Below, piece by piece: positions 7,187-21,534 of a DNA stretch of 64,000 nt. The translations under genes and the position numbers were made by a program. Position 1 is the stretch's first letter; each line of letters starts with the position of its first letter. The notes under the pieces are model-generated. The model was not told the DNA's origin and searched no databases. It saw nothing but the letters and a program-made list of their open reading frames with translations. The stretch comes from Myxococcota bacterium. GTDB taxonomy: Bacteria > Myxococcota_A > UBA9160 > SMWR01. The DNA lies in NCBI GenBank assembly GCA_035541475.1, contig DATKND010000047.1, forward strand, positions 508 to 64,507, given 5' to 3'.

Positions 7187-7726
7187 ATGCTGCGCCTCGC
7201 TGCGCGGCTCTCGCTCGGCGGCGCGCTGGCCTGCGCGAGCGCGCCGGTCGAGGTCGATGCGCCGCGCGATCTCCAGGGCTTTCGCACCTGGGAGTGGCGA
7301 CAGCCCGCCGATCCTCCAGCCATCGCTCCGGCCGATCCGGTGCTCGACGCCCGCCTGCGCGACGCGATCGGGCGAGAGCTCTACGCGCGCGGCTTCCGTC
7401 CGTCGACCGACGAGCACGCCGACCTCGGCGTCACCTATCGAGTCGCGCTGAAGCGCGAGGTCGTGGTCCGCACCGAGACGCCCGCGCAGCAGGATCTCCA
7501 GGGCCTCCACGCCGGGACTCCTTCGTACGAGATCGTCGCGAGCCAGCGTCGTCTCGTGCGCTACGAGCGCTTCGCCCTGCACGTCGAGCTGCGCGAGTCG
7601 GCGACGGGCGACGTCGTCTGGCGCGCCGACCTCGCGGACCGCACGCGCGGCCGCCTCGCCGCGACGGCCGACGAAGCGGTGGCCGCCCTGCTGCGAGAGC
7701 TTCCTCCGCGTCGCGAGCGCATCTGA
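7187..7726 (+). CDS. DUF4136-like lipoprotein
   Basis: LSLGGALAC lipobox; GFRTWEW, LDARLRDAIGRELYARGF, ADLGVTY and L.VELRESATGDVVWR match the DUF4136 pattern. Confidence 0.7.
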   Translation: MLRLAARLSLGGALACASAPVEVDAPRDLQGFRTWEWRQPADPPAIAPADPVLDARLRDAIGRELYARGFRPSTDEHADLGVTYRVALKREVVVRTETPAQQDLQGLHAGTPSYEIVASQRRLVRYERFALHVELRESATGDVVWRADLADRTRGRLAATADEAVAALLRELPPRRERI

Positions 7727-7767
7727 TCGGATAGGCTCCGCCCGCGAACCGAGGCCGGGACCCCGTC

Positions 7768-10623
7768 ATGCTGCGCGCCGCCTGTCTGCTGCTGACCGTG
7801 CTGACCGGCGCGAGCGCGCTGGTCTACGAGGTCGCGTGGCAGAAGTACCTGGCCACGCTCCTCGGCTCGCACGCCGAGGCGACCGCCGCCGTGCTCGCGA
7901 TCTTCCTCGGCGGCCTAGCCGCGGGCTACGAGCTCTTCGCGAGGCTGGCCGCGCGCGTGATGGCTCGCGGGTCGGACGCGCACGCCGCGCGCCTCCTGCG
8001 ACTCTACGGCGCGGTCGAGCTCTCGATCGGCGCCTACGCCCTGCTCTTCCCGACGCTCTTCGGCGTCGCGCAGTTCGCCTCGCTGGCGGTCCCGCGCGGC
8101 CACCCCGCGCCGGCCTTCGCCTTCGACGTCGCGCTCAGCGCGCTGCTGATCGGTCCGCCGGCCGTCGCGATGGGCGGCACGATCCCGCTGCTGACGCAGG
8201 CGCTCGCCGGCGACATCGCGCAGGCGACGCGCATCCACGCCTGGGTGTACGGCTGCAACACGCTCGGCGCGTTCGCGGGCGCGTTGCTCGGAGGACTCGC
8301 GCTCGTGCCGTGGCTCGGCCTCGACGGGACCTTGCGCGCGACCTCGCTCGTGAACCTCGTCGCGGGCCTCGGCTTCGTCCGGCTCGCGCGCCGCGCGCGC
8401 GACGTCGTGCCGCCCGCGCCGCCCGTGCCGGCGTCGACGCCCGCGCCGTCGCAGGCGCTGCCGCGCTTCACCGCCTACGCGGCCGTCGCGCTGCTCTCCG
8501 GCTTCGCGATGATGACCTTGCAGACGCTCTTCAACCGGATCGGCGCGCTCGCGCTCGGCGCGTCGCCCTTCACCTTCGCGATGGTCGTCGCGATCTTCGT
8601 GCTCTGCATCGCGCTCGGGAGCCTCGCCGTGTCGGCGCTGCCGCGCATTCCGCCGGGCCTCGTCTACGGCTCGGCGTGGCTCCTGGTCGCGCTGCTCGTG
8701 TGTCTCTATCCGCTGGTGCCGGACGCCGTCTACTGGGCGCACGCGCTGCGCGTGCTCTTCCGCTCGATCGATCAGGCCTTCTGGCCGTACCAGCTCGCGG
8801 TCTTCGTCGCCGGCTTCGCGGTGCTGGCGCTGCCGATCGGGCTCGCGGGTGCGCTGCTGCCGCTGCTCTTCCACCAGCTCCGCCGCGAGCTCGCGGATCT
8901 CGGCGCGACGGCCGGCCGCCTCTACGCCTGGAACACGCTCGGCTCGCTGCTCGGCGCGCTCGTCGGCGGCTACCTGCTGCTCGTGTGGCTCGATCTCCAC
9001 CACGTCTACCGCGTCGCGCTCGGGTGCCTGGTCGTCGCGGCGATGCTCCTCACCTTGCGCGTGCAGCACAAGCGCGCGCGCCTCTTCGACGCGCTCGCGC
9101 TCGCCGGCATGCTCGGTCTGATCGCGTGGCTCCCCGCCTGGGACGCCTCGAACCTCACCGCCGGCGCCTTCCGCCTGCACGAGCCGATGGACTGGTCGTT
9201 CGCCGGGCCGAGCGCGTTCTTCGCGAGTCGCCAGCTCGGCAAGCTCGTCTTCCACGACGACGACCCGACCAGCACGATCACCGTGCTCGAGCCCGACCAG
9301 CGCACGAACTCGCGCCCGAATCGATCGATCATCGTGAACGGCAAGTCGGACGGCAGCCTGATCGGCGACTACACGACGATGGCGATGCTCGGCCTGGTGC
9401 CGGCGCTGCTGGCCGAGCCCACGCCCGAGCGCTGCTTCGTGATCGGCTGGGGAACCGGCGTGTCGACCGGCGAGCTCGGCGCGCTCGACGAGACGCGCGA
9501 GGTCGAGGTGGCGGAGATCTCACAGGCCGTGCTCGACGCGGCGCCGCTCTTCGCGTCCGGCAATCAGGCCGCGTCGACCAACCCGAAGGTCCACGCGATC
9601 CACTCCGACGCGTACCGCGCGCTGCGCCAGAGCGGCGAGCGCTTCGACGTGATCGTGTCGGAGCCCTCCAATCCATGGGTCACCGGCGTCGAGATGCTCT
9701 ACAGCGTCGAATTCCTCGAGGCCGTGCGCGACCACCTCGCGCCCGGCGGCGTCTACGCGCAGTGGTTCCATCTCTACGAGACCGATCGAGACGTGGTCGA
9801 GCTCGTGCTGCGGACCTTCGCGCACGTCTTTCCGGACATGTCGGTCTGGTTCACACAGCACAGCGATCTGATGCTGATCGGGCGCCCGCCCGGTTCGAAG
9901 CCCTTCGATCTCGCGCGGCTCGAGGCCCGCCTGGCACGCCCGGACTTCCAGCGCGGCTTCGAGCGCATCGGCATCGACCGCCTCGGCGCGCTGCTCGCGC
10001 ACGAGCTGATCCCGAGCGGTGTCGTCGCGGCGTCGGGTCTCGGAGGCGAGCTCCACACCTTGCGGCGCCCGCTGCTCTCCGAGCGCGCGGCGCGCGCGTT
10101 CTTCCTCGGCGAAACCGCGAGGCTCCCGAAGTACGCGTTCCCCGAGAGCGCGCGCGTCGGCGCCGAGAGCTCGCTCGTGCGCCGCTACCTCGCCCTGCAC
10201 GGAAATCCGGAGTCGCTGCTCGACGACGTGACGCGCGAGACCTGCGGGTTCGAGCGGCGCGGGGAGTGCGCGGCGCTCTTCGCCGCCTGGCGGCGCGAGC
10301 ACCCGGGTTCCCCGCTCCTGGCCACCGCGCTCGCCGACTTCCGCCAGGTCTACACGGGTGACGGCGTGCTCTTCGATCCGAATCTCGATCGCATCGGCGC
10401 GCTCTTCGACGGCACGCAGCCCCCGCCCGCGGCCGGCCCCGACGAGCGCCCGCTCGCGCGCGCGCGGCGCGTCTCGAGCGACTACGTCCTCTACTACCAC
10501 CACGCGGTGCCGTTCGATCGCCGCGCGCTCACGCAGGTCTGGCAGCTCTGCACGAATCCCGCGTGCAACGAGCCGCGGCGCGAGGTGGAGGCGGAGCTCG
10601 GCGCGCTCGGGCCGGAGAGCTGA
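7768..10623 (+). CDS. Fused membrane (MFS-like) / spermidine synthase-like protein
   Basis: GASALVYEVAWQKYL N-terminus, about 13 TM helices, then a SAM/dcSAM fold (VIGWGTGVS, EVAEIS, DAYRAL, FDVIVSEPSNPWVTG). Confidence 0.88.
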   Translation: MLRAACLLLTVLTGASALVYEVAWQKYLATLLGSHAEATAAVLAIFLGGLAAGYELFARLAARVMARGSDAHAARLLRLYGAVELSIGAYALLFPTLFGVAQFASLAVPRGHPAPAFAFDVALSALLIGPPAVAMGGTIPLLTQALAGDIAQATRIHAWVYGCNTLGAFAGALLGGLALVPWLGLDGTLRATSLVNLVAGLGFVRLARRARDVVPPAPPVPASTPAPSQALPRFTAYAAVALLSGFAMMTLQTLFNRIGALALGASPFTFAMVVAIFVLCIALGSLAVSALPRIPPGLVYGSAWLLVALLVCLYPLVPDAVYWAHALRVLFRSIDQAFWPYQLAVFVAGFAVLALPIGLAGALLPLLFHQLRRELADLGATAGRLYAWNTLGSLLGALVGGYLLLVWLDLHHVYRVALGCLVVAAMLLTLRVQHKRARLFDALALAGMLGLIAWLPAWDASNLTAGAFRLHEPMDWSFAGPSAFFASRQLGKLVFHDDDPTSTITVLEPDQRTNSRPNRSIIVNGKSDGSLIGDYTTMAMLGLVPALLAEPTPERCFVIGWGTGVSTGELGALDETREVEVAEISQAVLDAAPLFASGNQAASTNPKVHAIHSDAYRALRQSGERFDVIVSEPSNPWVTGVEMLYSVEFLEAVRDHLAPGGVYAQWFHLYETDRDVVELVLRTFAHVFPDMSVWFTQHSDLMLIGRPPGSKPFDLARLEARLARPDFQRGFERIGIDRLGALLAHELIPSGVVAASGLGGELHTLRRPLLSERAARAFFLGETARLPKYAFPESARVGAESSLVRRYLALHGNPESLLDDVTRETCGFERRGECAALFAAWRREHPGSPLLATALADFRQVYTGDGVLFDPNLDRIGALFDGTQPPPAAGPDERPLARARRVSSDYVLYYHHAVPFDRRALTQVWQLCTNPACNEPRREVEAELGALGPES

Positions 10624-10632
10624 GCTCCGAAA

Positions 10633-10950
10633 TTAGAAGTCGCCGAGCGCTCGCGTGAAGGTGAAGTCGACCGGCGTCACCACGAAGGTGTCCCAGGTCT
10701 GACGCACGCCCGGTCCGAACACGGCGAGCGGCGCTGCGATGGGGAAGGCGGCGATGCCGACGATCGTCGCGCAGAAGCCGAGCGGCCGCAGCACCATCGC
10801 GTCGAAGACCTTCGGCCCTGTGATCGGCCAGTCGACGCCCTCGGTCTTCGGCACGTACTCGACCGGCGGCGCCTCGGGCTCGGGCGCGGCCGCGCCGATC
10901 ACGGCGAGGGCGAGGAGCGCGACACAGACGCGAATACGGCTCGCTCGCAT
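10633..10950 (-). CDS. Small secreted/membrane protein (D..VLRPLG...P..FTF.R.LG family)
   Basis: Start trimmed to ATG 10950. Signal peptide plus DAMVLRPLGF...VVTPVDFTFTRALGDF, a recognisable small-protein pattern. Confidence 0.65.
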   Translation of the reverse strand: MRASRIRVCVALLALAVIGAAAPEPEAPPVEYVPKTEGVDWPITGPKVFDAMVLRPLGFCATIVGIAAFPIAAPLAVFGPGVRQTWDTFVVTPVDFTFTRALGDF

Positions 10951-11404: not shown

Positions 11405-12958
11405 TCACCGCGCCGCGCGCTCGCGCGAGCGCAGCGCCTGACCGGGGAATGCGCCCTTCACCAGCTCGCCGTTCCGGACTACCGGCACGCCGCCGACGAT
11501 CACGTAGGGAATGCCGGCCGACGCTACCGGTGAGTGCTCGTAGGTCGCGCGGTCGATCACGGTGGCCGGATCGAAGACCACGAGGTCGGCGTCGTCGCCG
11601 AGCCGGATGCGGCCCTTGTGCAGGAAGGCCGGCGCCGTGAACTCGAGCCGGCGCGCCGGCAGCCAGGTCATGCGCGCGAGCGCGTCCATCAAGGTGAGGA
11701 CGCCGCGCTCGCGCACGTAGACGCCGAGCACGCGCGCGTGCGTGCCGACGCTGCGCGGGTGCTCGCCGCCCTCGTAGAGAGGCATCGCGTCGGCGGCGAC
11801 GAGCACACCGGGGTGTCGCAGCGCCTCCTCGACCCACGCCTCCTGCATCCCGTGGATCACGACCGTGCCGCCCTTCTTGCGATAGCGCGCGAAGCTCTTC
11901 TGATCGAGGCGCTCGCCCGTCGCGACCCACTGGAGATCGCCGTAGTCGAGGCCCATGCGCTCGCGCCAGCCGTCGTCGAAGAGCGCGGACTCGATCGAGG
12001 TCGACGACGCCGTGTAGGGATAGACCTCGGTCGTGACGAGGAGCCCGCCGGCGCGCGCGGCGTCGATCGCGGCGAGCGCGCGCGGGGTCGCGGCGCGCGT
12101 CGAGCTGACGATGTGGACCACGTGCAGCGAAGCGCCGGTCGCGCGCGCGTGGTCGAGCGCGGTCTCGAGTGGCGAGAGATCCTCGGGCGTCTGCTGCTCT
12201 GCGAGGTGCACGAAGACCGGCACGCTGCGATCGGCGGCGAGGGCGAAGACCGCGCGCACCTCGTCCGGCGTCGCGCCCGGCGTGTAGGCGAGCCCCATGC
12301 CGATGCCGATCCCGCCCGCGTCCATCTCCTCGCCGAGGAGACGCACGAGCGTGCGGATGCCGGCGGGATCGGCCGGCTCGTAGGCCCAGCCGGTCGGGTT
12401 CCACAGGTGGCGCAACATCCCCATGAACCAGCCGGGCCGGTCGATCGGGTGACCGCCCGAGATCCCGTGCATCACCTTCACCCGCGTCGGGATGTGTCCG
12501 GCCGACACGCCGAAGTGGATCCGCGCGTGACCCTCGCGCTCGCGCAGGAAGTCCTTCACCCCGTGCACGCCGAGCTCGAGGTCGAGCGCGGAGGTGACGC
12601 CGTCGCGCGCGAGGTAGTCGTAGGAGAGCTCGTTCTGCCCGTGCGCGTGGATGTCGATGAAGCCCGGCGCCACCGCGAGGCCGGTCGCGTCGATCGTCTG
12701 TTTGCCCTCGAGCGGCTGTGACGAGAGCACCGCGATGTGGCCCGCGCGGATGCCGAGGTTCAGCACCTGGTCCATGCCGCTCGCGGGGTCGAGCACGCGG
12801 CCGTTCGCGACGACGAGGTCGTAGACCTCCTCGGCGGCCGGCGTTGCGGGCGGCGGCTTCGGGATCTCGACCGCGCGCGCCGACACCGCGCACAGCGCGG
12901 CGAGCGCGACGCCGAGCAGGGCCGGCACGCGCCCGCGCGCCCGCTCAGGCGATCGCAT
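11405..12958 (-). CDS. Secreted amidohydrolase (N-acyl-D-amino-acid / D-glutamate deacylase-like)
   Basis: Signal peptide, DLVVANGRVLDP, PGFIDIHAH metal motif, EHPRSVGTHARVLG, KGRIRLGDDADLVVFDP. Confidence 0.88.
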   Translation of the reverse strand: MRSPERARGRVPALLGVALAALCAVSARAVEIPKPPPATPAAEEVYDLVVANGRVLDPASGMDQVLNLGIRAGHIAVLSSQPLEGKQTIDATGLAVAPGFIDIHAHGQNELSYDYLARDGVTSALDLELGVHGVKDFLREREGHARIHFGVSAGHIPTRVKVMHGISGGHPIDRPGWFMGMLRHLWNPTGWAYEPADPAGIRTLVRLLGEEMDAGGIGIGMGLAYTPGATPDEVRAVFALAADRSVPVFVHLAEQQTPEDLSPLETALDHARATGASLHVVHIVSSTRAATPRALAAIDAARAGGLLVTTEVYPYTASSTSIESALFDDGWRERMGLDYGDLQWVATGERLDQKSFARYRKKGGTVVIHGMQEAWVEEALRHPGVLVAADAMPLYEGGEHPRSVGTHARVLGVYVRERGVLTLMDALARMTWLPARRLEFTAPAFLHKGRIRLGDDADLVVFDPATVIDRATYEHSPVASAGIPYVIVGGVPVVRNGELVKGAFPGQALRSRERAAR

Positions 12959-14003
12959 CGACGAGTCCCCACTCCTTCGCGGTGCGCGCGTCGACACGCG
13001 CGCCTGTCAGGGCCATCCACGCGGTGCGCTGGCGGCCGATGCGGCGTGGCAGGCTGACCGTCCCGCCCGCGCCGGGCACGAGGCCCATCGAGAGCTCCGG
13101 CAGCCAGAAGCGCGCGTCCGGCGCCGCGACCATTTGCTTCGCAAACGCCGGCAGCTCGACTCCCGCGCCGACGCAGGCGCCGTGCACGCGCGCCGCGACG
13201 CGCGCGGCGCAGGCGGCGAGCAGGCGCGCGGGGCTGCGCGTCGTGCGGATCGCGTGCGCGGTCGCCGGATCCGGCAGCGAGCCGAACTCGTCGAGGTCGC
13301 CGCCGCTGCAGAAGTCGGGGCCGTCGCCGGAGAGCGTCACCTCGCGGATCGACGCGTCCGCGACCGCGACCTCGAGTGCCTCGCAGAGCGCGTCGCGCAT
13401 CGCGGCGGAGAAGGCGTTGCGCTTCGCGGGGCGCGCGAGCACGAGATCCAGGCGGTCGCCGTGCCGCGCGATCCGCACCGCCGGATCGGTCTCGGGAGGC
13501 CGCAGCCTCGGCGCGCCGCGGAGCGAGAGCCAGGCCGCGAAGCCCGGGCCCGCCTGCAAGGTCGAATAGGTGAGCGACTCCGCGACGAGGCCGTCCGCCA
13601 CGGGCCGGCCTTCCGAGAGGCGCAGCAGCTGCACGAGCGCCGCCGCGGCGATCGGCTGCCGCGCGACGGCGCGCGCGACCTCCGCGCAGGCCTCTGCCGA
13701 CTCGACCACGACGTCGAGCCGCTTCGCGAGCGCGGCGCGGCCGAGATCGAGCTCATCGGGCTCCGCCGCGATGCCGACACTGGGGCATGGCAGCGAGGCC
13801 AACGCGTGCTGCGCGGCCTCGCGCCGCGAAGGCGACACCGATTCCGGTCCCGCGCCCCCCACGAGATCGATCGCGAGGAGCGGCTCGTCGCCGTGCGGTC
13901 CGAAGCGCTCGCCGGATCGCGGATCGGCGAGCCGCTCGAGCGCCTCGGCCGGCGCGTGGAGCTTCAGCGCGAGTCCCGTCCGCTCTTCGCCTCGGCCAGC
14001 CAC
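12945..14003 (-). CDS. Enoyl-CoA hydratase/isomerase family protein with N-terminal extension
   Basis: 3' half of track ORF; GTG start at 14003. RPAKRNAF, FCSGGDLDEF, VHGACVGAGVEL and LPELSMGLVPGAGGT, with both catalytic Glu positions present. Confidence 0.85.
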   Translation of the reverse strand: MAGRGEERTGLALKLHAPAEALERLADPRSGERFGPHGDEPLLAIDLVGGAGPESVSPSRREAAQHALASLPCPSVGIAAEPDELDLGRAALAKRLDVVVESAEACAEVARAVARQPIAAAALVQLLRLSEGRPVADGLVAESLTYSTLQAGPGFAAWLSLRGAPRLRPPETDPAVRIARHGDRLDLVLARPAKRNAFSAAMRDALCEALEVAVADASIREVTLSGDGPDFCSGGDLDEFGSLPDPATAHAIRTTRSPARLLAACAARVAARVHGACVGAGVELPAFAKQMVAAPDARFWLPELSMGLVPGAGGTVSLPRRIGRQRTAWMALTGARVDARTAKEWGLVDAIA

Positions 14004-15484
14004 GCCCGTACCTCGCGGCGCAGCAGCTTCCCGGTCTCGTTGTAGGGAAGCTCCTCGCGGAACTCGATGCGGGCCGGCGCCCGCGACGAGCGCAGCTCGC
14101 GCGCGACGAACTCGCGCAGCGTCTCGGGCGTCGCCTCGACGCCCGGCTTGCGCACCACGACCGCCGCGACCGCCTCGCCCCACTCCTCGTCGGGCACCCC
14201 CACGACGGCGCAGTCCGCCACCGCGGGGTGTCCGAGCAGCACGTCCTCGATTTCGCCGGGCGACATGTTCTCGCCGCCGCGCACGATGATGTCGTCGATG
14301 CGGCCCTCGAGGAAGACGTAGCCCTCGGCGTCGAGGCTGCCGGCGTCGCGCGTCGGGAAGAAGCCGTCGCTGCCGACGCGGCTCGTCTTGCCGAGGTATT
14401 CGCCCGAGACCTGCTCGCCGCGCACGCAGATTTCGCCCGACACGCCCGGCGGACATGCGCGCCCCTCTTCGTCGCGCACCTCGATCTCGACCGAGGGCAG
14501 CGGGCGGCCGACCGAGGCGAGGCGCCGGCGCACGGCCGGATCGTCGCTCGCGGCGGCGGCGCGGTGGTCCTCGGGAGTCAGCACCGTCAAGGTCGAGCTC
14601 GTCTCGGTGAGCCCGTAGGCGTTCGTGAAGTCGCTCTCGGGAAAGAGGCGCATCGCGCGCTCGATCACCGCGAGCGGCATCTTGCCGCCTCCATAGGAGA
14701 GCGAGCGGATGCCCGGCGCGCGCGCGCGCGGCTCGCGCTCCAGCACCTCGACGATGCGCGCGAGCATGGTCGGCACCACGAACGCATGCGACACCCGTTC
14801 GCGTCGCGCGAGGTCGAGCCAGGCCTCGGCGGAGAAGCTCGGGAGCTGCACGATGCGGCGGCCCGAGTAGATCGAGCTCGCGAGCACGGCCATGCCGGCC
14901 ACGTGATACGGCGGCACGCTGACGAGCGCCGCGTCCTCCTCGGAGGCCGCGCCGAACTCGACCGAGCCGAGGATGTAGGAGACGAGGTGCCGGTGGCGCA
15001 GCACCGCGGCCTTCGGCGGTCCGGTCGTGCCGCTCGTGAAGAGCAGGACGGCGATGTCGTCGCCCTCCATCGACCACTCGGCGCTGCGCGCGCTGCCGCC
15101 GCGCGCCTGTGCGACGAAGTCCTCACGCGCGACGGCAACCACGCCGGCGCGCTCACGGAGCGCGCGCGCGCGCGCCGCGTCGGTCACGAGGTACGCCGGC
15201 TCGATCTGCGCGAGCAGCCGCTCGAGCTCCGCGCCGGTGAGGCGGTAGTTCAGCGGCACGAATGGCACGCCGGCCCAGGCCGCGCCGAAGAGTCCGATCG
15301 GCAGCGCCAGGCTGCTGACGTCGAGGATCGCGGCGTGCTTCGCGCCGCTCGCGGCGATCGCGTCCGCCGCGGCGCCGGCCGCGCGGAGGAGATCCGCGTA
15401 GGCCAGGCGCTCGCCCTCGTTGACGACGGCCACCCGATCGCCGAAGCCCGAGGCGGCCATCTCGAGGAGCATCATCAGGTTCAT
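13964..15484 (-). CDS. Acyl-CoA synthetase (class I adenylate-forming enzyme)
   Basis: LFTSGTTGPPK, YGLTET, TRDAG, GRIDDIIVRGGEN and P10 motif NETGKLLRR. Confidence 0.93.
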   Translation of the reverse strand: MNLMMLLEMAASGFGDRVAVVNEGERLAYADLLRAAGAAADAIAASGAKHAAILDVSSLALPIGLFGAAWAGVPFVPLNYRLTGAELERLLAQIEPAYLVTDAARARALRERAGVVAVAREDFVAQARGGSARSAEWSMEGDDIAVLLFTSGTTGPPKAAVLRHRHLVSYILGSVEFGAASEEDAALVSVPPYHVAGMAVLASSIYSGRRIVQLPSFSAEAWLDLARRERVSHAFVVPTMLARIVEVLEREPRARAPGIRSLSYGGGKMPLAVIERAMRLFPESDFTNAYGLTETSSTLTVLTPEDHRAAAASDDPAVRRRLASVGRPLPSVEIEVRDEEGRACPPGVSGEICVRGEQVSGEYLGKTSRVGSDGFFPTRDAGSLDAEGYVFLEGRIDDIIVRGGENMSPGEIEDVLLGHPAVADCAVVGVPDEEWGEAVAAVVVRKPGVEATPETLREFVARELRSSRAPARIEFREELPYNETGKLLRREVRAWLAEAKSGRDSR

Positions 15485-15533
15485 CGCGGCTCGCCTATCT
15501 GGTTGCTCGCGCCCACCGGGTCGATCCTCTGAA

Positions 15534-15560
15534 CTTCGCTCGCCTGCGGCTCGCTGCGCG
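15534..15560 (+). repeat. REP-like intergenic element, copy 1
   Basis: CTTCGCTCGCCTGCGGCTCGCTGCGCG; a second copy at 59882-59908 shows compensatory changes in the central hairpin. Confidence 0.5.
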
Positions 15561-15579
15561 CCGCGCTCCGCGCGGCTTG

Positions 15580-15888
15580 CTAGTCCGACGCGGGAAGCGG
15601 CTTGGCTTCCTTGAGGACCAGCAGCGTGTCGCCGATGGCGAGCGAGCCCTTGCCGGGCTTGGTGCAGAGGAGCTCGAGCTTCCCTTCCGCGTTCACGTAG
15701 CGCTTGCCGATCTGCGTGCCGGCCGAAGCGGAGGCCGCAACGCTACCGCCCGCCGGAGCCTGCTCGCCGATCGGGAGCATCGGCGCGCCGCCGCAGCGCA
15801 CGTCGAGGTCGGCGTCGGGCGTCTGGATGACCATCACCTCGGTGGTGCAGACGGCGCTCTTCACGCGGCTGCCTGCCTTGAGCTTCAT
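15580..15888 (-). CDS. Conserved-looking 102-aa protein with two desulforedoxin-like halves and a KPLPASD tail
   Basis: ATG 15888 preceded by AGGAGG. Sequence MKLKAGSRVKSAVCTTEVMVIQ...RCGGAPM...GKRYVNAEGKLELLCTKPGKGSL...KEAKPLPASD. Confidence 0.8.
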   Translation of the reverse strand: MKLKAGSRVKSAVCTTEVMVIQTPDADLDVRCGGAPMLPIGEQAPAGGSVAASASAGTQIGKRYVNAEGKLELLCTKPGKGSLAIGDTLLVLKEAKPLPASD

Positions 15889-15951
15889 GCCTCGGGTCCT
15901 CCTGCGGGGCCGCATCGTAACCCACGGAACCGGCTGCGGTACTGTCGCTCG

Positions 15952-17301
15952 ATGCTCGAAGCAAGGCGCGTTCGCATCGCCGGCCAGGGGGCGGCCCGGG
16001 ACTACGCGGCGCACCTGCTCGCGAGCCTCGGCGCCGATGTCGTGCGCGCCCGGGGTCCGATCGATCTCCCGGCCGCGCTCGAGTGGGCACGCAGCGGTGC
16101 GATGTGGCTGACGGGCACGGCGGTCGGTGCGCCGCGCCCGGCTCCGGGTCCGCTGGCGTCGTGCGCGCGCGGCGCGCTCGAAGCGCTCCGCGCGCTCGTG
16201 CCGTGGAGCGACGCGCTGCCCCTCGACGGCGCCGCGCTCCTCGGCGAGCGCGCGGCCTGCTTCGGCTACGCGCGCGCGGGTCGGGTCGCGCCCAGCCGGA
16301 GCTGTCGCCTGCTCCGCTGCGAGGACGGCTGGATCGCGCTGAACCTCGCTCGCGACGACGACCGCGCGAGCCTGCCGGCCTGGCTCGAGCGCGACGCCGA
16401 CCCGCAAGCCGACGCGTGGGACTTCGCCGAGCGTGGCGTCGCGCGGCGCTCGACCGCGGACCTCGCGCTGCGCGCCGGCTGGCTCGGCCTCGCGGTCGCG
16501 GTGGCAACGGCGCCACCCGATCCGACACCGCCGTGGCTTCGCGGGCGCGCCGTCGGCGCTGCCGGCGCGCGCGCGTGGCAGGGTCCGCGCCGCGCGCCGC
16601 TCGTGCTCGACCTCTCCGCGCTGTGGGCCGGCCCGCTTTGCGGCTCGCTCCTCGCCGCAGCCGGCGCGCGGGTCGTGAAGGTCGAGAGCGTGCGGCGCCC
16701 GGACGGCGCGCGCTCGGGACCTCGCGACTTCTTCGATCTCTGCAACGGCGCGAAGCCCTGCGTCGCGCTCGACCTCGGCAGCGCGCGCGGGCGCGAGCAG
16801 CTCGCGGCCCTGGCCCGGCGCGCCGACTGCATCGTCGAGAGCGCGCGGCCACGCGCGCTCTCGCAGCTCGGGCTCGACGCGGACGCATGGCTCGCGGAGG
16901 CGCCGGGACGCACCTGGGTGTCGCTCACCGGTTATGGCCGCGGCGATCCGGCGCCCGGCCGCGTGGCCTTCGGCGACGACGCCGCCGTCGCGGCGGGGCT
17001 CGCGCTCACGACCGGCGGCGAAGACGCGCCACTCTTCTGTGGCGACGCGATCGCCGATCCGCTCGCGGGCCTGCATGCCGCGGTGGCCGCGGCGGCTTCG
17101 CTGCGCGCGGGCGGCGGCCATCTGCTCGACCTCGCGCTCCGCGACGTCACGGCGCACGCGGCGGCGTTCCGGCCGGCGTCGGATCTCGCGGTCTCGATCG
17201 ACTGCGTGTCGCCGCCGCGCGCGCGGCATCCCGCGCGCGCCGCAGGCTCGCTCGGCGCGGACACCGCGTCGATCCTCGCGGAGCTCGGCGTCGCGTGCTG
17301 A
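15952..17301 (+). CDS. Family III CoA-transferase (CaiB/BaiF)
   Basis: VLDLSALWAGPLCGSLLAAAGARVVKVES, KPCVALDL, ADCIVESARPRAL..LGL, FGDDAAVAAG. Start trimmed to ATG 15952. Confidence 0.88.
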   Translation: MLEARRVRIAGQGAARDYAAHLLASLGADVVRARGPIDLPAALEWARSGAMWLTGTAVGAPRPAPGPLASCARGALEALRALVPWSDALPLDGAALLGERAACFGYARAGRVAPSRSCRLLRCEDGWIALNLARDDDRASLPAWLERDADPQADAWDFAERGVARRSTADLALRAGWLGLAVAVATAPPDPTPPWLRGRAVGAAGARAWQGPRRAPLVLDLSALWAGPLCGSLLAAAGARVVKVESVRRPDGARSGPRDFFDLCNGAKPCVALDLGSARGREQLAALARRADCIVESARPRALSQLGLDADAWLAEAPGRTWVSLTGYGRGDPAPGRVAFGDDAAVAAGLALTTGGEDAPLFCGDAIADPLAGLHAAVAAAASLRAGGGHLLDLALRDVTAHAAAFRPASDLAVSIDCVSPPRARHPARAAGSLGADTASILAELGVAC

Positions 17302-18713
17302 TCACGCGCGCGGAGGTCGAGGGGCGCGCGCCCTGCGCGGTGCGGATCGCGGGCGGTCGCATCGTCGAAATGGGCGCCGATCTCGATCCGCGTCCGGGAG
17401 AGAGCCTCTTCGACGCGGCGGGCGGCGCGCTGCTGCCCGGACTCCACGACCACCACCTCCATCTCTTCGCATGGGCCGCCGCGCGTCGCAGCGTCGCCTG
17501 CGGACCGCCGGCCGTGCGCGATGCCGCGGCGCTTGCGGACGCGCTGCGCGCGGCCGCGCGCTCCGCGAAGCCCGGCGCCTGGATCCGCGGCGTCGGCTAC
17601 CACGAGTCGGTCGCGGGACCGCTCGATCGCAACGCACTCGACGCGCTCGTCCCCGACCACCCGCTCCGCATCCAGCAGCGCACCGGGTCGCTCTGGTGCC
17701 TGAACAGCGCCGCGTGTCGCGCGCTCGGCGTCGACGATGCCGCGGGGCGCCTCTTTCATGCCGACGCCTGGCTGCGCGCGCGCCTCGCGGCCGGCGAAAC
17801 GCCGTCGCTCGCGGAGGTAGGATCCGTGTTGTCGCAGTACGGCGTCACGGGAGTGACGGACGCGAGCCCCGACAACGGAGCCGTCGAGCTCGCGGCCTTC
17901 GCGCGCGCGCAGGCGCAGGGCGAGCTTCCGCAGCGCGTGCTCGCGATGGGCCGCGCGGATCTGCCGGAATCTTCCGCGCCGCGACTCGCGCGCGGCCCCC
18001 GCAAGCTGCGCCTGTCCGAGAGCGCGCTGCCGCGCTTCGAGGACCTCGTCGCGGAGATCGAGTCCACGCATGCACGGGGTCGCGTGGTCGCGATCCACTG
18101 CGTGACGCGAGCCGAGCTCGTCTTCGCGTGCGCGGCCTTCGAATCCGCGGGCACGCGCGCGGGCGACCGCATCGAGCACGCGAGCGTCGCGCCGCCCGAC
18201 ACGCTCACGTCACTCGCGGCGCTTCGCTTGACAGTCGTAACGCAGCCGGGGTTCGTCGCGACCCGCGGCGACGCCTATCGGCGCGACGTCGACTCGAACG
18301 ACCTTCCCTATCTCTATAGATGCGCAGGACTCGCCACCGCCGGGATCCCCCTGGGCGGCAGCACGGACGCGCCGTACGGCGACGCCGATCCGTGGGCCGC
18401 GATGCGCGCGGCGGTCGACCGACTCGCGCCGGACGGCCTCCCGCTCGGCGCGCAAGAGGCGCTCTCGCCCGAGCGCGCGCTCGCGCTCTTCACGACCTCG
18501 GCCGAGTCGCCGGGCGGCGAGCCGCGACGGATCGTGCCGGGCGCGCGCGCGGATCTGTGTCTGCTCGATCGTCCCTGGTCGGCAGCGCGCCGGCAGCTCG
18601 AGAGCAGGCACGTCGTCGCGACCTGGTGTGACGGGCGCCTCGTCGGCTCGGAGCTCGGCTTCGCGCACTCCGGCAACACTGCCGCTCTGGCGATACCTTC
18701 GGCGCCATGCTGA
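17295..18713 (+). CDS. Amidohydrolase family 3 (YtcJ-like)
   Basis: GTG start overlapping the CoA-transferase stop. LLPGLHDHHLH, VAIHC, RIEHAS, GGSTDAP and GARADLCLLD. Confidence 0.88.
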   Translation: MLITRAEVEGRAPCAVRIAGGRIVEMGADLDPRPGESLFDAAGGALLPGLHDHHLHLFAWAAARRSVACGPPAVRDAAALADALRAAARSAKPGAWIRGVGYHESVAGPLDRNALDALVPDHPLRIQQRTGSLWCLNSAACRALGVDDAAGRLFHADAWLRARLAAGETPSLAEVGSVLSQYGVTGVTDASPDNGAVELAAFARAQAQGELPQRVLAMGRADLPESSAPRLARGPRKLRLSESALPRFEDLVAEIESTHARGRVVAIHCVTRAELVFACAAFESAGTRAGDRIEHASVAPPDTLTSLAALRLTVVTQPGFVATRGDAYRRDVDSNDLPYLYRCAGLATAGIPLGGSTDAPYGDADPWAAMRAAVDRLAPDGLPLGAQEALSPERALALFTTSAESPGGEPRRIVPGARADLCLLDRPWSAARRQLESRHVVATWCDGRLVGSELGFAHSGNTAALAIPSAPC

Positions 18714-19687
18714 TCCGACCGCGCCGCAACCGCGCGAGCCCCGCGCTGCGAAGGCTCGTGCGCGAGACGCGCCTCGGCCCGGACGACCTGGTGCTGCCGC
18801 TGTTCGTGCAGGAGGGCGAGAACCGGCGCACGCCGATCGCGGCGATGCCCGGACACGCGCGGCTCTCGATCGATCACCTGGTCGCGACCGCGCGCGAGGC
18901 CGCCGAGCTCGGCATCCCGGGCGTGGCGCTCTTCCCGGTGCTGCCGGACGAGCTGAAGGACCCGCGCGGCAGCGCGTCGACGAAGCCCGACGGCCTCTTC
19001 CAGCGCGCGATCCGCGCCGTGAAGTCGGCGCTGCCCGAGCTGCTCGTGATCACGGACGTCGCGCTCGATCCGTACTCGTCGGACGGCCACGACGGTGTCG
19101 TGATCGGCGGCCGCATCGACAACGACGAGACCCTGCCGCTGCTGGCCGCGATGGCGGTCTCGCAGGCGGAGGCCGGCGCCGACGTCGTCGCGCCCTCCGA
19201 CATGATGGACGGTCGCGTGCGCGCGATCCGCGAGGCGCTCGACGCGGCCGGCTTCGTCGACGTCGCGATCGGCAGCTACTGCACGAAGTACGCGTCGGCC
19301 TTCTACGGCCCCTTCCGCGAGGCGCTCGACTCGGCGCCGCGTCACGGCGACAAGAAGACGTATCAGATGGATCCGGGCAACGCGCGCGAGGCGCTGCGCG
19401 AGCTCGCGCTCGACGAGGCCGAGGGCGCGGACTGGGTGATGGTGAAGCCGGGCCTGGTGTATGCCGACGTGATCCGGCTGGTGCGCGAGCACACGGCGCT
19501 GCCGGTCGCCGCCTATCACGTGAGCGGCGAGTACGCGATGCTGCGCGCGGCGGCCGAGCGCGGCTGGATCGACTACGACGCGTGTCTTCTCGAGTCGCTG
19601 ACGTCGCTGAAGCGCGCCGGCGCCGACCTGATCTTCACCTACGGCGCGCTCGACGCCGCGCGGCTGCTGAGGCGCGGCGGACGTTAG
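18707..19687 (+). CDS. hemB: Porphobilinogen synthase (ALA dehydratase), Zn-independent type
   Basis: RPRRNR, DVALDPYSSDGHDG (no Cys triad), APSDMMDGR, YASAFYGPFREA, YQMDP, MVKPG, AYHVSGEYAM. Confidence 0.97.
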   Translation: MLIRPRRNRASPALRRLVRETRLGPDDLVLPLFVQEGENRRTPIAAMPGHARLSIDHLVATAREAAELGIPGVALFPVLPDELKDPRGSASTKPDGLFQRAIRAVKSALPELLVITDVALDPYSSDGHDGVVIGGRIDNDETLPLLAAMAVSQAEAGADVVAPSDMMDGRVRAIREALDAAGFVDVAIGSYCTKYASAFYGPFREALDSAPRHGDKKTYQMDPGNAREALRELALDEAEGADWVMVKPGLVYADVIRLVREHTALPVAAYHVSGEYAMLRAAAERGWIDYDACLLESLTSLKRAGADLIFTYGALDAARLLRRGGR

Positions 19688-19706
19688 GCGCCCGCTGGCG
19701 CTCGCC

Positions 19707-21534
19707 TCAGGGCGTCATCACATGCGGGGAGGAACCCGGTCTACCCGCCGCGACGTTATCACTTCCTGGTGTCGATGCGCCGGAGGTCACCCGAAACACC
19801 CGCCACCTCGGCCCGGCGGCCTCGAGCTGGAAGGCCTCCGAGTGGGCGGCGAGGAGCCCCTGGAATACGTCCGATTCCTTGGGCAGCCAGTAGCTCCAGT
19901 TCTTGTCCGTGACGACGACCCATTGCACGCCGTGTCGCCGGATGCCCTCCATGAGGATGTCCGTGTCGCTCAGCGGGGGAAGCCACACCACCTTGCGCCC
20001 GGACAGGTGATGGACGACAGCGACTTCCCGCGCCATGAGTACGGCGCGTTCGTCCGCGTGCTCGCGCAACCATGTGGCGGCCTGGATCTCCGAGTAGTTG
20101 GGAGATTTCGTCACCTCGAAGGCGAGGTTCCAGCGCGCGACTGCCAACTCCTCGATGACCCCCACGAGCACCAGGCCCCCGATTCCCAGCGCGAGAGAGA
20201 TCCCTGCCAGACGCGGCGCGAGGGCACCCCAGTCGGGATCGAGGCGGAGCCGCTCCCCGCGCTCGCGCACCCACAGCCCGGCGGCTGCGACCGCGATCCA
20301 GAAACACGAGGAGGCGACCGGCTGGATCGTACCCAGACGCAGCGCGCTACTGCCCGCCATCGCGGCGAGCGGCACCGACACGGCGATCAGCGCCGTGCCG
20401 AGCCGGCGACGACGGAGTCGCGCCTGTCGGCCGAGCTCCAACGTTCCGCGCCAGACGTACCAGCACGCGAGCGGCAGCAGCGGCAGGATGAAGCGGACCT
20501 CGACATCCCAGGGCCACACCACGACCATCGCGGCCGACGCGACGAAGGCGAAGTCGTGGAGGTGACCGGCGCGCTCGAGCAAGGAAGCGACCAGACCGAC
20601 TAAGAGCAGGCCCAGCGCGGCGGATATCGCGGGCGAGCCCCAGTCCGGCAGGATCCAATGGTGCGTGAGCAGCTGGTCAGCACTTGTCGTGTAGTTCAGA
20701 AGATTGTCGCCGATGCGGTGCACCCAATCCGCAGCGCCGGCGTCGCCCAGCTCCGGTCGATTTCCGTTCACGACCCTGAGCTGTGAGAGATACGACTTCG
20801 GGTAGCCGCCCAGGGGCCATTCCGAGATCTCGTTGCCTCCGGCCCAGACCATCCAGATCCCTTGAACGACGACACCGACGAGCAGCGCCGGGGCGAGCCA
20901 GCGCAGACGTCGCCGCAGCGCGCCGCGCTCCATCAGCCAGGTCGCGCCGATCCAGGCAATTGCGCCGGCGATGATCGAGATGGCCGCCGTGCGGAGCATC
21001 ACGCACGTCGCGAGGGTTGCCGCGAAGAGCAGGGATGTGGCGACGCGCTTGCGCGTAGGGCCTCCGGAGTCCGCGCCCAGGGCGAGCCAGAAGGCCAGCG
21101 ACGTCACGGCGAAGCACGGCAGGTCCGAGAACCACCAGGTTCGTGGAGAAGGAGAAGATCTCGGGCGAGGCCATCGGCAGCAGACAGGCGGCGCCCGCGA
21201 TGCCTCGTCCCCCGATCCGGCGGATCAGCGCGTAGCTGAGCAGGAAGCCGAGCGTGGAGAAGAGCGCCAGCGCCCGCAGGTCGTTCGCATGACCACAGCC
21301 CGTCGAGACACACAGAAGTGCAAGAAGAGAGGGCATCCCCGGCGGCATGAGCGTCCCCGGGGCTCCGTTGAAGCCATAGGGCTCGCCGTGGACGATCGAC
21401 TCGGCCAGCTCGATGTACGTGGTATCGCCACTGACGAAGTCGTCACCGCGGCGGACCATGAACCCCTGGAGCGCGCCGAGCGCGATGATCGCGCAGGCGA
21501 AGACGATGTCCGTCCGGGTGACGCGCCGGGGCAT
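19707..21534 (-). pseudogene. GT-C (ArnT/PMT-like) membrane glycosyltransferase interrupted by a +1 frameshift
   Basis: Track ORFs 20677..21534 and 19707..21107 join if one G at 21132/21133 is removed: NLV-[G]-FSDLPCFAVTSLAFW. The repaired ORF is 608 aa with SGDTTYIELAESI and R.ILPLLP motifs. Could also be a sequencing error. Confidence 0.75.

Follow-up and report, generated by a model that had tools for sequence, protein, structure and literature searches.

We suggest that the stretch of DNA analyzed here, a window of 64,000 nucleotides (nt) on contig DATKND010000047.1 of the Myxococcota bacterium assembly GCA_035541475.1, carries a conserved and horizontally shared module for the coenzyme A (CoA)-dependent breakdown, along a route of the beta-oxidation type, of some carboxylic acid or amide. 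The module brings together a crotonase, an AMP-forming (ANL) acyl-CoA ligase, a small protein of 102 amino acids (aa), a family III (CaiB/BaiF-type) CoA-transferase and a YtcJ-like amidohydrolase, and the small protein would act as a dedicated partner of the ligase. This is the reading towards which we lean. Its most interesting element is an undescribed family of ligase-associated small proteins, followed by two enzymes, the crotonase and the transferase, whose topologies appear rearranged. An initial annotation, made from the window alone, had proposed that these genes encode an undescribed catabolic or carrier-protein-dependent pathway, and the catabolic half of this proposal gains support from their co-occurrence in other genomes and from the lack of a matching model among known pathways.

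Conservation of the five-gene module

The five genes are passed on together, as one set. Among 41 genomes of the same order, which are Myxococcota-type metagenome-assembled genomes (MAGs), the small protein was matched in 29, the ligase in 28 and the crotonase, conserved over its full length, in 31; orthologues of the CoA-transferase and the amidohydrolase were found in 28 and 30, respectively. All five genes are missing from the same ten genomes, eight of which are 88-97% complete and two 73-84%, and the few discordant genomes are fragmented assemblies. The divergent layout of the window is nearly unchanged in twelve extended loci of ~20 kb. A wider, back-translated search of species-representative genomes confirmed a relative of the small protein in 577 of 600 matched stretches among the matches listed, that is, in at least 577 species-representative genomes, and 80 loci of up to ~16 kb were kept from it. 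The layout of the window recurs in most of these 80 loci, all from other species. Of the 79 loci usable for this count, 73 have an orthologue of the ligase no more than 500 nt from the small gene; of the 48 that extend at least 5 kb to either side of it, 36 contain the rearranged crotonase, 31 the rearranged transferase and 13 the amidohydrolase. Because it is conserved in dozens of genomes, the arrangement lies far beyond chance.

The initial annotation had named neighborhood analysis among the checks of its proposal, and the all-or-none pattern across the 41 genomes bears the proposal out, as does the recurrence of the same neighborhood beyond the window, in Myxococcota, in Acidimicrobiia and elsewhere. 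All five genes form a single co-directional operon in a Halioglobus MAG (L094), the divergent layout is repeated in MAGs labelled 'Spirochaetales', and the set recurs in the Acidimicrobiia, usually without the amidohydrolase and with an acyl-CoA dehydrogenase, a short-chain dehydrogenase/reductase (SDR) and a thiolase added. The annotation's statement that no characterized pathway of this exact composition is known also stands. Assignment to a known pathway was considered and rejected, with the NCBIfam equivalog models far below their cut-offs for all five proteins, and a literature search returned no description of the set, and nothing relevant on circularly permuted crotonases, desulforedoxin-like acyl-CoA partners, the tail motif described below or accessory proteins of acyl-CoA synthetases.

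The ligase and its small neighbor

The small protein and the ligase are the invariant core of the module. The ligase matches Pfam AMP-binding (236.5 bits) and AMP-binding_C (77.1 bits), and its core motifs A3, A5, A8 and A10 are present (TSGTTGPPK, YGLTE, GRIDDIIVRGGEN and PYNETGK among the motifs read). No NCBIfam model matches it above cut-off, the best being PRK06187 (354.8 vs 476 bits), and it falls below the cut-off of every ligase model of known substrate considered, including MenE (251.6 vs 330 bits), the FadD types, CasG and malonyl-CoA synthetase. Its A7 motif reads F-F-P-T-R-D instead of the usual T-G-D, and the form F/W-F-P-T-R-D is common to a clade of ligases that includes the orthologues in Rhodococcus and Sphingobium. 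The other ANL paralogues of the window genome that show an A7 motif carry T-G-D, and a single, unrelated T-R-D match turned up among them; T-R-D strings found otherwise in that genome seem to be fortuitous, their sequence surroundings being unrelated. P-T-R-D, in place of the near-universal T-G-D, could be used to recognize the two-gene unit from sequence. We note that it is shared by the paired ligases at 13964-15484 (-) of the window, at 7406-8938 of locus L105 and at 9303-10814 of locus L106.

The small protein has no Pfam or NCBIfam match. Its relatives, of which there are 3600 in a 90%-clustered collection, are all unnamed or 'hypothetical', and they form at least 1172 clusters at 50% identity. 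The family signature can be written S-x-V-C ... C-G-G ... G-K-R-Y ... E-L-L-C-T-K-x-G-x-G ... K-x-L-P-(S/A)-S-D-stop. When conservation was counted over 106 diverse members, R63 and P99 were invariant, and G6, S11, C32-G33-G34, G61-K62, Y64, E72, L74, G79, G81, L98, S101 and D102 were conserved in at least 90%. Most members carry two or three cysteines, of which only Cys32 reaches this level; since C75 is conserved in 75% and C14 in 67%, a four-cysteine metal site is not the conserved feature of the family. Its most striking feature is instead the strictly free LP(S/A)SD-COOH tail: a stop codon directly follows D102 in 103 of 103 genomic copies examined, and the end of the domain is the last residue of the protein in ~145 of the best 150 representatives. 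The AlphaFold2 (AF2) model of the protein (predicted local distance difference test, pLDDT, 92.4) is all-beta, with seven short strands, and the C-terminal tail is its sole low-confidence, and presumably flexible, part. Foldseek searches with this model against PDB and BFVD returned no match at E < 0.4, and a profile search against PDB sequences found no relative. Neither the 106 members nor a smaller set of 16 gave a match to PF03621 (MbtH-like), even at permissive E-values. The protein likewise has no Pfam match to PP-binding, as an acyl carrier protein would, and its model is not four-helical. An internal duplication ('pseudo-dimer') was considered and rejected, the hhalign comparison of the two halves (P = 0.027 over 12 columns) not being significant.

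Beyond the lineages that share the whole module, the pair of small gene and ligase was found on annotated replicons: plasmid pDK3 of Rhodococcus sp. DK17, a plasmid of Mycobacterium branderi and pBSY17_1 of Sphingobium sp. RAC03. There the small gene is annotated as 'hypothetical protein' and the ligase as 'class I adenylate-forming enzyme', 'AMP-binding protein' or 'fatty acid--CoA ligase family protein'. The small gene also occurs on Streptomyces and Sphingomonas plasmids. In the Mycobacteriales (Nocardia, Rhodococcus, Mycobacterium) the order of the pair is inverted and its adjacency kept. The surroundings of the pair in such clusters are beta-oxidation-like, with CaiB/BaiF transferases, a crotonase, MaoC, acyl-CoA dehydrogenases, SDRs, a thiolase with an oligonucleotide/oligosaccharide-binding (OB)-fold protein, and P450/ferredoxin genes. 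Of the proteins encoded in the Rhodococcus, Mycobacterium and Sphingobium clusters, only two are orthologous to proteins of the window, namely the ligase (49-58% identity) and the small protein (50-53%); transferases and crotonase are of the ordinary type there. The likeness to clusters in actinobacteria and sphingomonads that the initial annotation had mentioned holds for the ligase and small-protein pair, and does not extend to the transferases and hydratases.

Because the two genes remain adjacent across at least four phyla, despite inversion of their order and in clusters that share nothing else, the small protein appears directly tied to the ligase in function. Most likely, and most economically, it serves the ligase non-covalently, as a subunit, an activator or a scaffold, in a role comparable to that of MbtH-like proteins for the adenylation domains of nonribosomal peptide synthetases (NRPS) or of DUF35 proteins for thiolases. 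One metagenomic open reading frame (ORF) runs from a ligase C-terminal domain into the small protein in frame, with no stop codon between. It is one of five longer ORFs among the top 150 relatives that were inspected for such Rosetta-stone fusions; another joins a ferredoxin to the small protein, and the remaining ones are frame artefacts of high-GC DNA, which leaves too few cases for an argument from fusion. In two relatives (L013 and L024) the crotonase directly follows the small gene, and the ligase orthologue is on another contig.

Two rearranged enzymes and the amidohydrolase

The initial annotation had assigned the crotonase and the family III CoA-transferase to their families. The families are right, and neither enzyme is an ordinary member. 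The crotonase matches Pfam ECH_1 with 111.9 bits (cut-off 27) over profile positions 11-173 of 251, aligned to its residues 142-304, and the family match begins near residue 130 and runs to the stop codon. Against PDB 5ZAI (E = 2.4e-26) its catalytic glutamates align with Glu113 and Glu133, and both of them, E228 and E248, are invariant in 20 orthologues. The N-terminal ~116 residues, compared in hhalign with a profile of 32 canonical paralogues, align with canonical positions 99-131 and 197-254, which include the usual C-terminal helices (score 36.2, vs 11.2 +/- 2.2 and a maximum of 18.9 for 100 column shuffles). In the AF2 model (pLDDT 92.8; predicted template-modeling score, pTM, 0.90) four long N-terminal helices precede the core, and Foldseek retrieves crotonases at E ~1e-14 and a root-mean-square deviation of ~2 A, with a core of ~180 of the 297 residues aligned. 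The canonical order, spiral core first and helical domain last, is thus not the one found: the helices are N-terminal and the core ends at the stop codon. Judged from the alignments and the model, the topology of the enzyme looks rearranged in the manner of a circular permutation. Among named hydratases (EchA19, PaaF, PaaG and others) none matches above its NCBIfam cut-off, the best being EchA19 with 111 vs 400 bits. As an observation on the genome at large, tblastn finds ~30 crotonase and ~20 CaiB-type transferase paralogues in it, so that its repertoire for CoA esters is unusually large for a size of 5 Mb.

The transferase tells a similar story. It matches Pfam CoA_transf_3 with 140.4 bits (cut-off 23.3) over profile positions 6-209 of 366, aligned to residues 218-410, and formyl-CoA transferase in PDB at E = 3.6e-18. 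In hhalign its residues 217-408 align with canonical positions 10-210, the CoA-binding segment of the large domain (probability 100%), and its residues 46-188 with positions 145-320, which include the small domain (probability 88%; score of this N-terminal half 48.5, vs 12.5 +/- 2.1 for shuffles); the last 30 residues align weakly with positions 351-381. The continuous succession of large, small and large domain segments is therefore absent, the small-domain segment lying in the N-terminal half. For both enzymes it looks as if a tandem duplication had occurred and the copies had then undergone complementary losses, amounting to a circular permutation. A frameshift or truncation as the cause of the partial matches was rejected, the full-length architectures being conserved across phyla.

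The amidohydrolase, which is single-copy in the window genome, matches Pfam Amidohydro_3 with 144.6 bits over profile positions 3-471 of 472, and its closest solved structures are the uncharacterized hydrolases 3ICJ and 3IGH. The metal-ligand motifs of the family (HxH, His, His and Asp) are found as LHDHHLHL, AIHCV, IEHAS and STDAP, in alignment with 3ICJ. At the level of sequence, ligase, hydratase and amidohydrolase are all shown to keep their catalytic motifs.

Locus organization and flanking genes

Genes were assigned by a frame analysis of third-position GC content (GC3), by ORF listing and by start-codon context, in a window whose G+C content is ~72% and whose ORF lists are crowded with spurious frames. 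The features of the locus are collected in Table 1.

Table 1. Features at the module locus, in window coordinates.
Feature	Position	Strand	Length and remarks
Second amidohydrolase (PRK09061 family), predicted signal peptide	11405-12958	-	NCBIfam NF006560
Crotonase (rearranged)	12945-13838/13862	-	~290-305 aa; start uncertain, GTG at 13838 or 13862
AMP-forming (ANL) acyl-CoA ligase	13964-15484	-	506 aa; Pfam AMP-binding and AMP-binding_C
GC hairpin GCCGCGC-GGA-GCGCGGC	15560-15576	-	Read from sequence; within the 95-nt spacer
Small protein	15580-15888	-	102 aa; AGGAGG 8 nt upstream of ATG
Divergent intergenic region	15889-15951		Exactly 63 bp, from ATG of the small gene to the plus arm; two putative promoters
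Family III (CaiB/BaiF-type) CoA-transferase (rearranged)	15952-17301	+	449 aa
YtcJ-like amidohydrolase (Amidohydro_3)	17295-18713	+	472 aa
hemB (porphobilinogen synthase)	18707-19687	+	NCBIfam NF006762

Much of the initial description of this locus holds. The two arms, their five genes and the width of the gap across which they diverge proved exact, Pfam confirms all four of the enzyme families that had been named, and the small gene does have a strong Shine-Dalgarno sequence of its own. Two points need amendment. Overlapping genes had been described in each arm, and this is the case in the plus arm, where transferase and amidohydrolase overlap by 7 nt; in the minus arm 95 nt separate the small gene from the ligase, and ~100-125 nt the ligase from the crotonase, unless a GTG at 14003 serves as start codon. 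The five genes do fill the range from 12945 to 18713 that had been given for the module, and both arms continue beyond it, into hemB on one side and a second amidohydrolase on the other.

The hairpin in the spacer between small gene and ligase has a stem of 7 bp and a loop of 3 nt, starts 4 nt past the stop codon of the small gene and lacks a U-tract; it matches neither a terminator nor an Rfam family, and it could set the ratio of small protein to ligase expression or stabilize the transcript. A scan for sigma-70 promoter and terminator consensus sequences gave no match, and the sigma-70 consensus is uninformative for this high-GC lineage.

The hemB gene (487.6 bits to its NCBIfam model, cut-off 297) is the sole copy detectable in the assembly, and its start overlaps the stop codon of the amidohydrolase by 7 nt (ATGCTGA). 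Close relatives in which it adjoins the amidohydrolase are few (L013, L025 and L027). Its candidacy as a functional member of the module was rejected, the adjacency being limited to this close sub-lineage, and we regard hemB as a lineage-specific passenger. Next to it, at 19707-21534 (-), lie two ORFs that look coding by GC3 (up to 466 and 285 aa) and have no Pfam or NCBIfam match.

The second amidohydrolase (490 bits to its NCBIfam model, cut-off 340) lies directly downstream of the crotonase, whose stop codon it overlaps by 14 nt, and its N-terminus, MRSPERARGRVPALLGVALAALCAVSARA, shows a clear predicted signal peptide. It had no match in the twelve loci of ~20 kb, nor in the 80 loci of up to ~16 kb. 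In view of its signal peptide and of the lack of synteny elsewhere it was not retained as a member of the module; from the gene arrangement it is apparently an exported enzyme that is co-transcribed with cytosolic CoA enzymes.

Proposed function and alternative explanations

We posit the following sequence of events, the individual steps of which draw on the chemistry of the enzyme families. The YtcJ-like amidohydrolase would free the substrate or open its ring, and the ANL ligase, together with its 102-aa partner, would form the first acyl-CoA at the expense of ATP. The rearranged crotonase would then hydrate, or otherwise process, the enoyl- or acyl-CoA, and the rearranged family III transferase would move CoA from the product to a fresh substrate. 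As the transferase would recycle CoA, ATP would be needed for priming only. In the Acidimicrobiia, the adjoining acyl-CoA dehydrogenase, SDR and thiolase would complete a beta-oxidation cycle. The small protein might dock on the ligase by way of GKRY, an invariant basic patch, and of the free LP(S/A)SD tail.

Several observations weigh against this proposal. In the transferase, whose activity is putative, the column of the canonical catalytic aspartate holds a glycine, and two invariant aspartates come directly after it (FGDDAAVAAG). Most loci of the Acidimicrobiia, and the clusters of the actinomycetes, have no amidohydrolase, which may thus be an add-on and not a core step. The ligase lies apart from the small gene in two relatives, L013 (G021:C3) and L024 (G033:C159), an arrangement which indicates that the two genes can be split without loss of either, and the apparent fusions between the two are few and could be gene-calling artefacts. 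From its overlap with the amidohydrolase, a single-copy housekeeping gene, hemB, appears to be translationally coupled to the plus arm, a coupling not usually seen where a catabolic operon is purely inducible. Neither a transporter nor a regulator was found to be conserved beside the module, in a list of additional neighbors that is a lower bound since the GC3 caller missed genes, and an Rfam scan of 12500-20000 found no riboswitch or leader RNA at E <= 1.

Most of the other explanations center on the small protein. It might be a new kind of partner for stand-alone enzymes of the acyl-CoA-ligase type that acts through its free LP(S/A)SD tail, either as a covalent carrier of acyl or amino groups or with the tail inserted into the pantetheine tunnel of the ligase, where it would gate or complete the active site; we consider this broader idea improbable. 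Its covalent form would have the ligase load its acyl-adenylate onto the hydroxyl of Ser101, or activate the carboxylate of the terminal Asp, or make use of Cys32, with later enzymes acting on the protein-tethered intermediate and the amidohydrolase releasing the product, much as in LysW-type systems. The strictly terminal tail, always followed by a stop codon and presumably flexible, does recall carriers that use their tails; position 101 is Ser or Thr in 106 of 106 members and Asp102 is present in 105 of 106, the protein is tightly paired with an adenylating enzyme, and the amidohydrolase of the module could provide the release step. That step would, however, be lacking from the many pair-bearing clusters without the amidohydrolase, and we know of no ANL enzyme that acylates the C-terminal tail of a protein. 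The partners of the pair, a crotonase and a CaiB-type enzyme, are CoA-dependent and keep their CoA-binding segments intact, pointing to CoA thioesters as the intermediates, and the cysteines are dispensable, Cys32 being replaced in 9 of the 106 members and Cys14 in about a third. For these two reasons a covalent carrier, or insertion of the tail, is the less likely explanation, and we judge the carrier version unlikely.

Quite unlikely in our view, and less probable than a carrier, is a metal or redox function, in which the small protein, as a degenerate form of a desulforedoxin-like protein, would serve an oxidoreductase step or sense the redox state, and would adjoin the ligase for co-regulation only. 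Such an origin would account for the weak matches of 8 of the 106 members to Pfam Desulfoferrod_N (best E = 1e-4), which ranks first among 25 weakly matched families, the next being matched by 3 members; for ferredoxin genes near the pair in the Rhodococcus, Mycobacterium and Sphingobium clusters; and for one metagenomic ORF in which the small protein is fused to a 2Fe-2S ferredoxin domain. Conservation does not extend to an Fe(Cys)4 site, however, and the window's protein has no match to PF06397 or any other Pfam family; the internal repeat falls short of significance, the residues that are conserved are basic or aromatic (GKRY) or belong to the tail and are not metal ligands, and the small gene adjoins the ligase and not any oxidoreductase. 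The weak matches suggest only a distant desulforedoxin-like ancestry. Equally doubtful, in our view, is a role of the module in biosynthesis or salvage, in which it would make or recycle a building block activated with CoA, such as one from the metabolism of tetrapyrroles or 5-aminolevulinate. The apparent coupling of the sole hemB to the amidohydrolase, its neighbor in a few relatives too, and the wide retention of the module as a single copy would fit such a role, but the hemB adjacency is absent at most loci, a quarter of the related genomes lack the module, which makes it dispensable, and elsewhere the neighbors are classic degradative genes (acyl-CoA dehydrogenase, SDR, thiolase, MaoC, P450/ferredoxin) on replicons that are catabolic megaplasmids. 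We thus return to CoA-dependent breakdown, with the small protein as a ligase partner, as the interpretation that we favor.

Significance and comparison with known systems

The ligase and small-protein pair is common, and yet the small gene is absent from Pfam and NCBIfam. If the ligase does need the small protein, the 'fatty-acid-CoA ligase' annotations of a large clade describe incomplete enzymes, and heterologous expression of these ligases, for degradation or biocatalysis, would fail without the partner; should the partner act through its tail, the whole PTRD 'FadD-like' clade in Myxococcota, Actinomycetota and sphingomonads would consist of two-component enzymes. Two naturally occurring enzymes of rearranged topology also bear on how permutation is accommodated in the interlocked dimer of CaiB and in the trimer of crotonases, and the module as a whole would mark a CoA-dependent route of catabolism, yet to be assigned, that is widespread among marine and soil Myxococcota and among Acidimicrobiia.

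The division of labor that we propose has precedents. In the E. coli carnitine system (CaiB, CaiC and CaiD) and in the bile-acid system (BaiB and BaiF), a ligase primes the pathway and a family III transferase recycles CoA. The module has the same trio of families, an ANL ligase, a family III CoA-transferase and a crotonase acting on a CoA ester, and its added amide hydrolysis resembles the deconjugation of bile acids that precedes CoA activation. There is no orthology, however: the transferase scores 39.6 bits against CaiB model NF002914 (cut-off 413), and the CaiC-like and PaaF/EchA models are far below their cut-offs. A CaiA-type reductase and a CaiT antiporter are not seen beside the five genes, the transferase and crotonase of the module are rearranged, and its small partner protein is absent from both of those systems. 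Clusters of the Bbs type, which serve the beta-oxidation of an unusual acid and consist of a CaiB-type transferase (BbsEF), a crotonase (BbsH), an SDR (BbsCD), an acyl-CoA dehydrogenase (BbsG) and a thiolase with a DUF35 subunit (BbsAB), match the gene content around the pair in Rhodococcus, Mycobacterium and the Acidimicrobiia, and they too attach a small accessory protein, of zinc-ribbon-like type, to a CoA enzyme. The module differs from them in using an ATP-dependent ligase and in carrying an amidohydrolase, and its small protein is not a DUF35 protein (no Pfam match and no OB fold), so that the DUF35 proteins of thiolases offer a functional analogy and not a relationship.

For the small protein itself, likenesses can be drawn in three directions. 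With desulforedoxin (PF06397) it shares a short beta-hairpin 'knuckle' pattern around C...CGG, but its length is roughly threefold, the GKRY and LP(S/A)SD signatures are its own and the four-cysteine iron site is not conserved in its family. LysW is likewise a small globular protein, with a conserved free, acidic C-terminal tail as its functional end; it is acidic overall and is loaded on its terminal Glu by ATP-grasp ligases, whereas the small protein is paired with an ANL enzyme, has basic conserved positions and is unrelated in sequence. The MbtH-like proteins are unrelated to it in sequence and fold, as it gave no match to PF03621 and is predicted to be all-beta, and its proposed partner is a stand-alone enzyme of the acyl-CoA-ligase type. 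As proteins of ~70-100 residues that are encoded beside an adenylate-forming enzyme and co-inherited with it, they nevertheless provide the best functional analogy for the pair.

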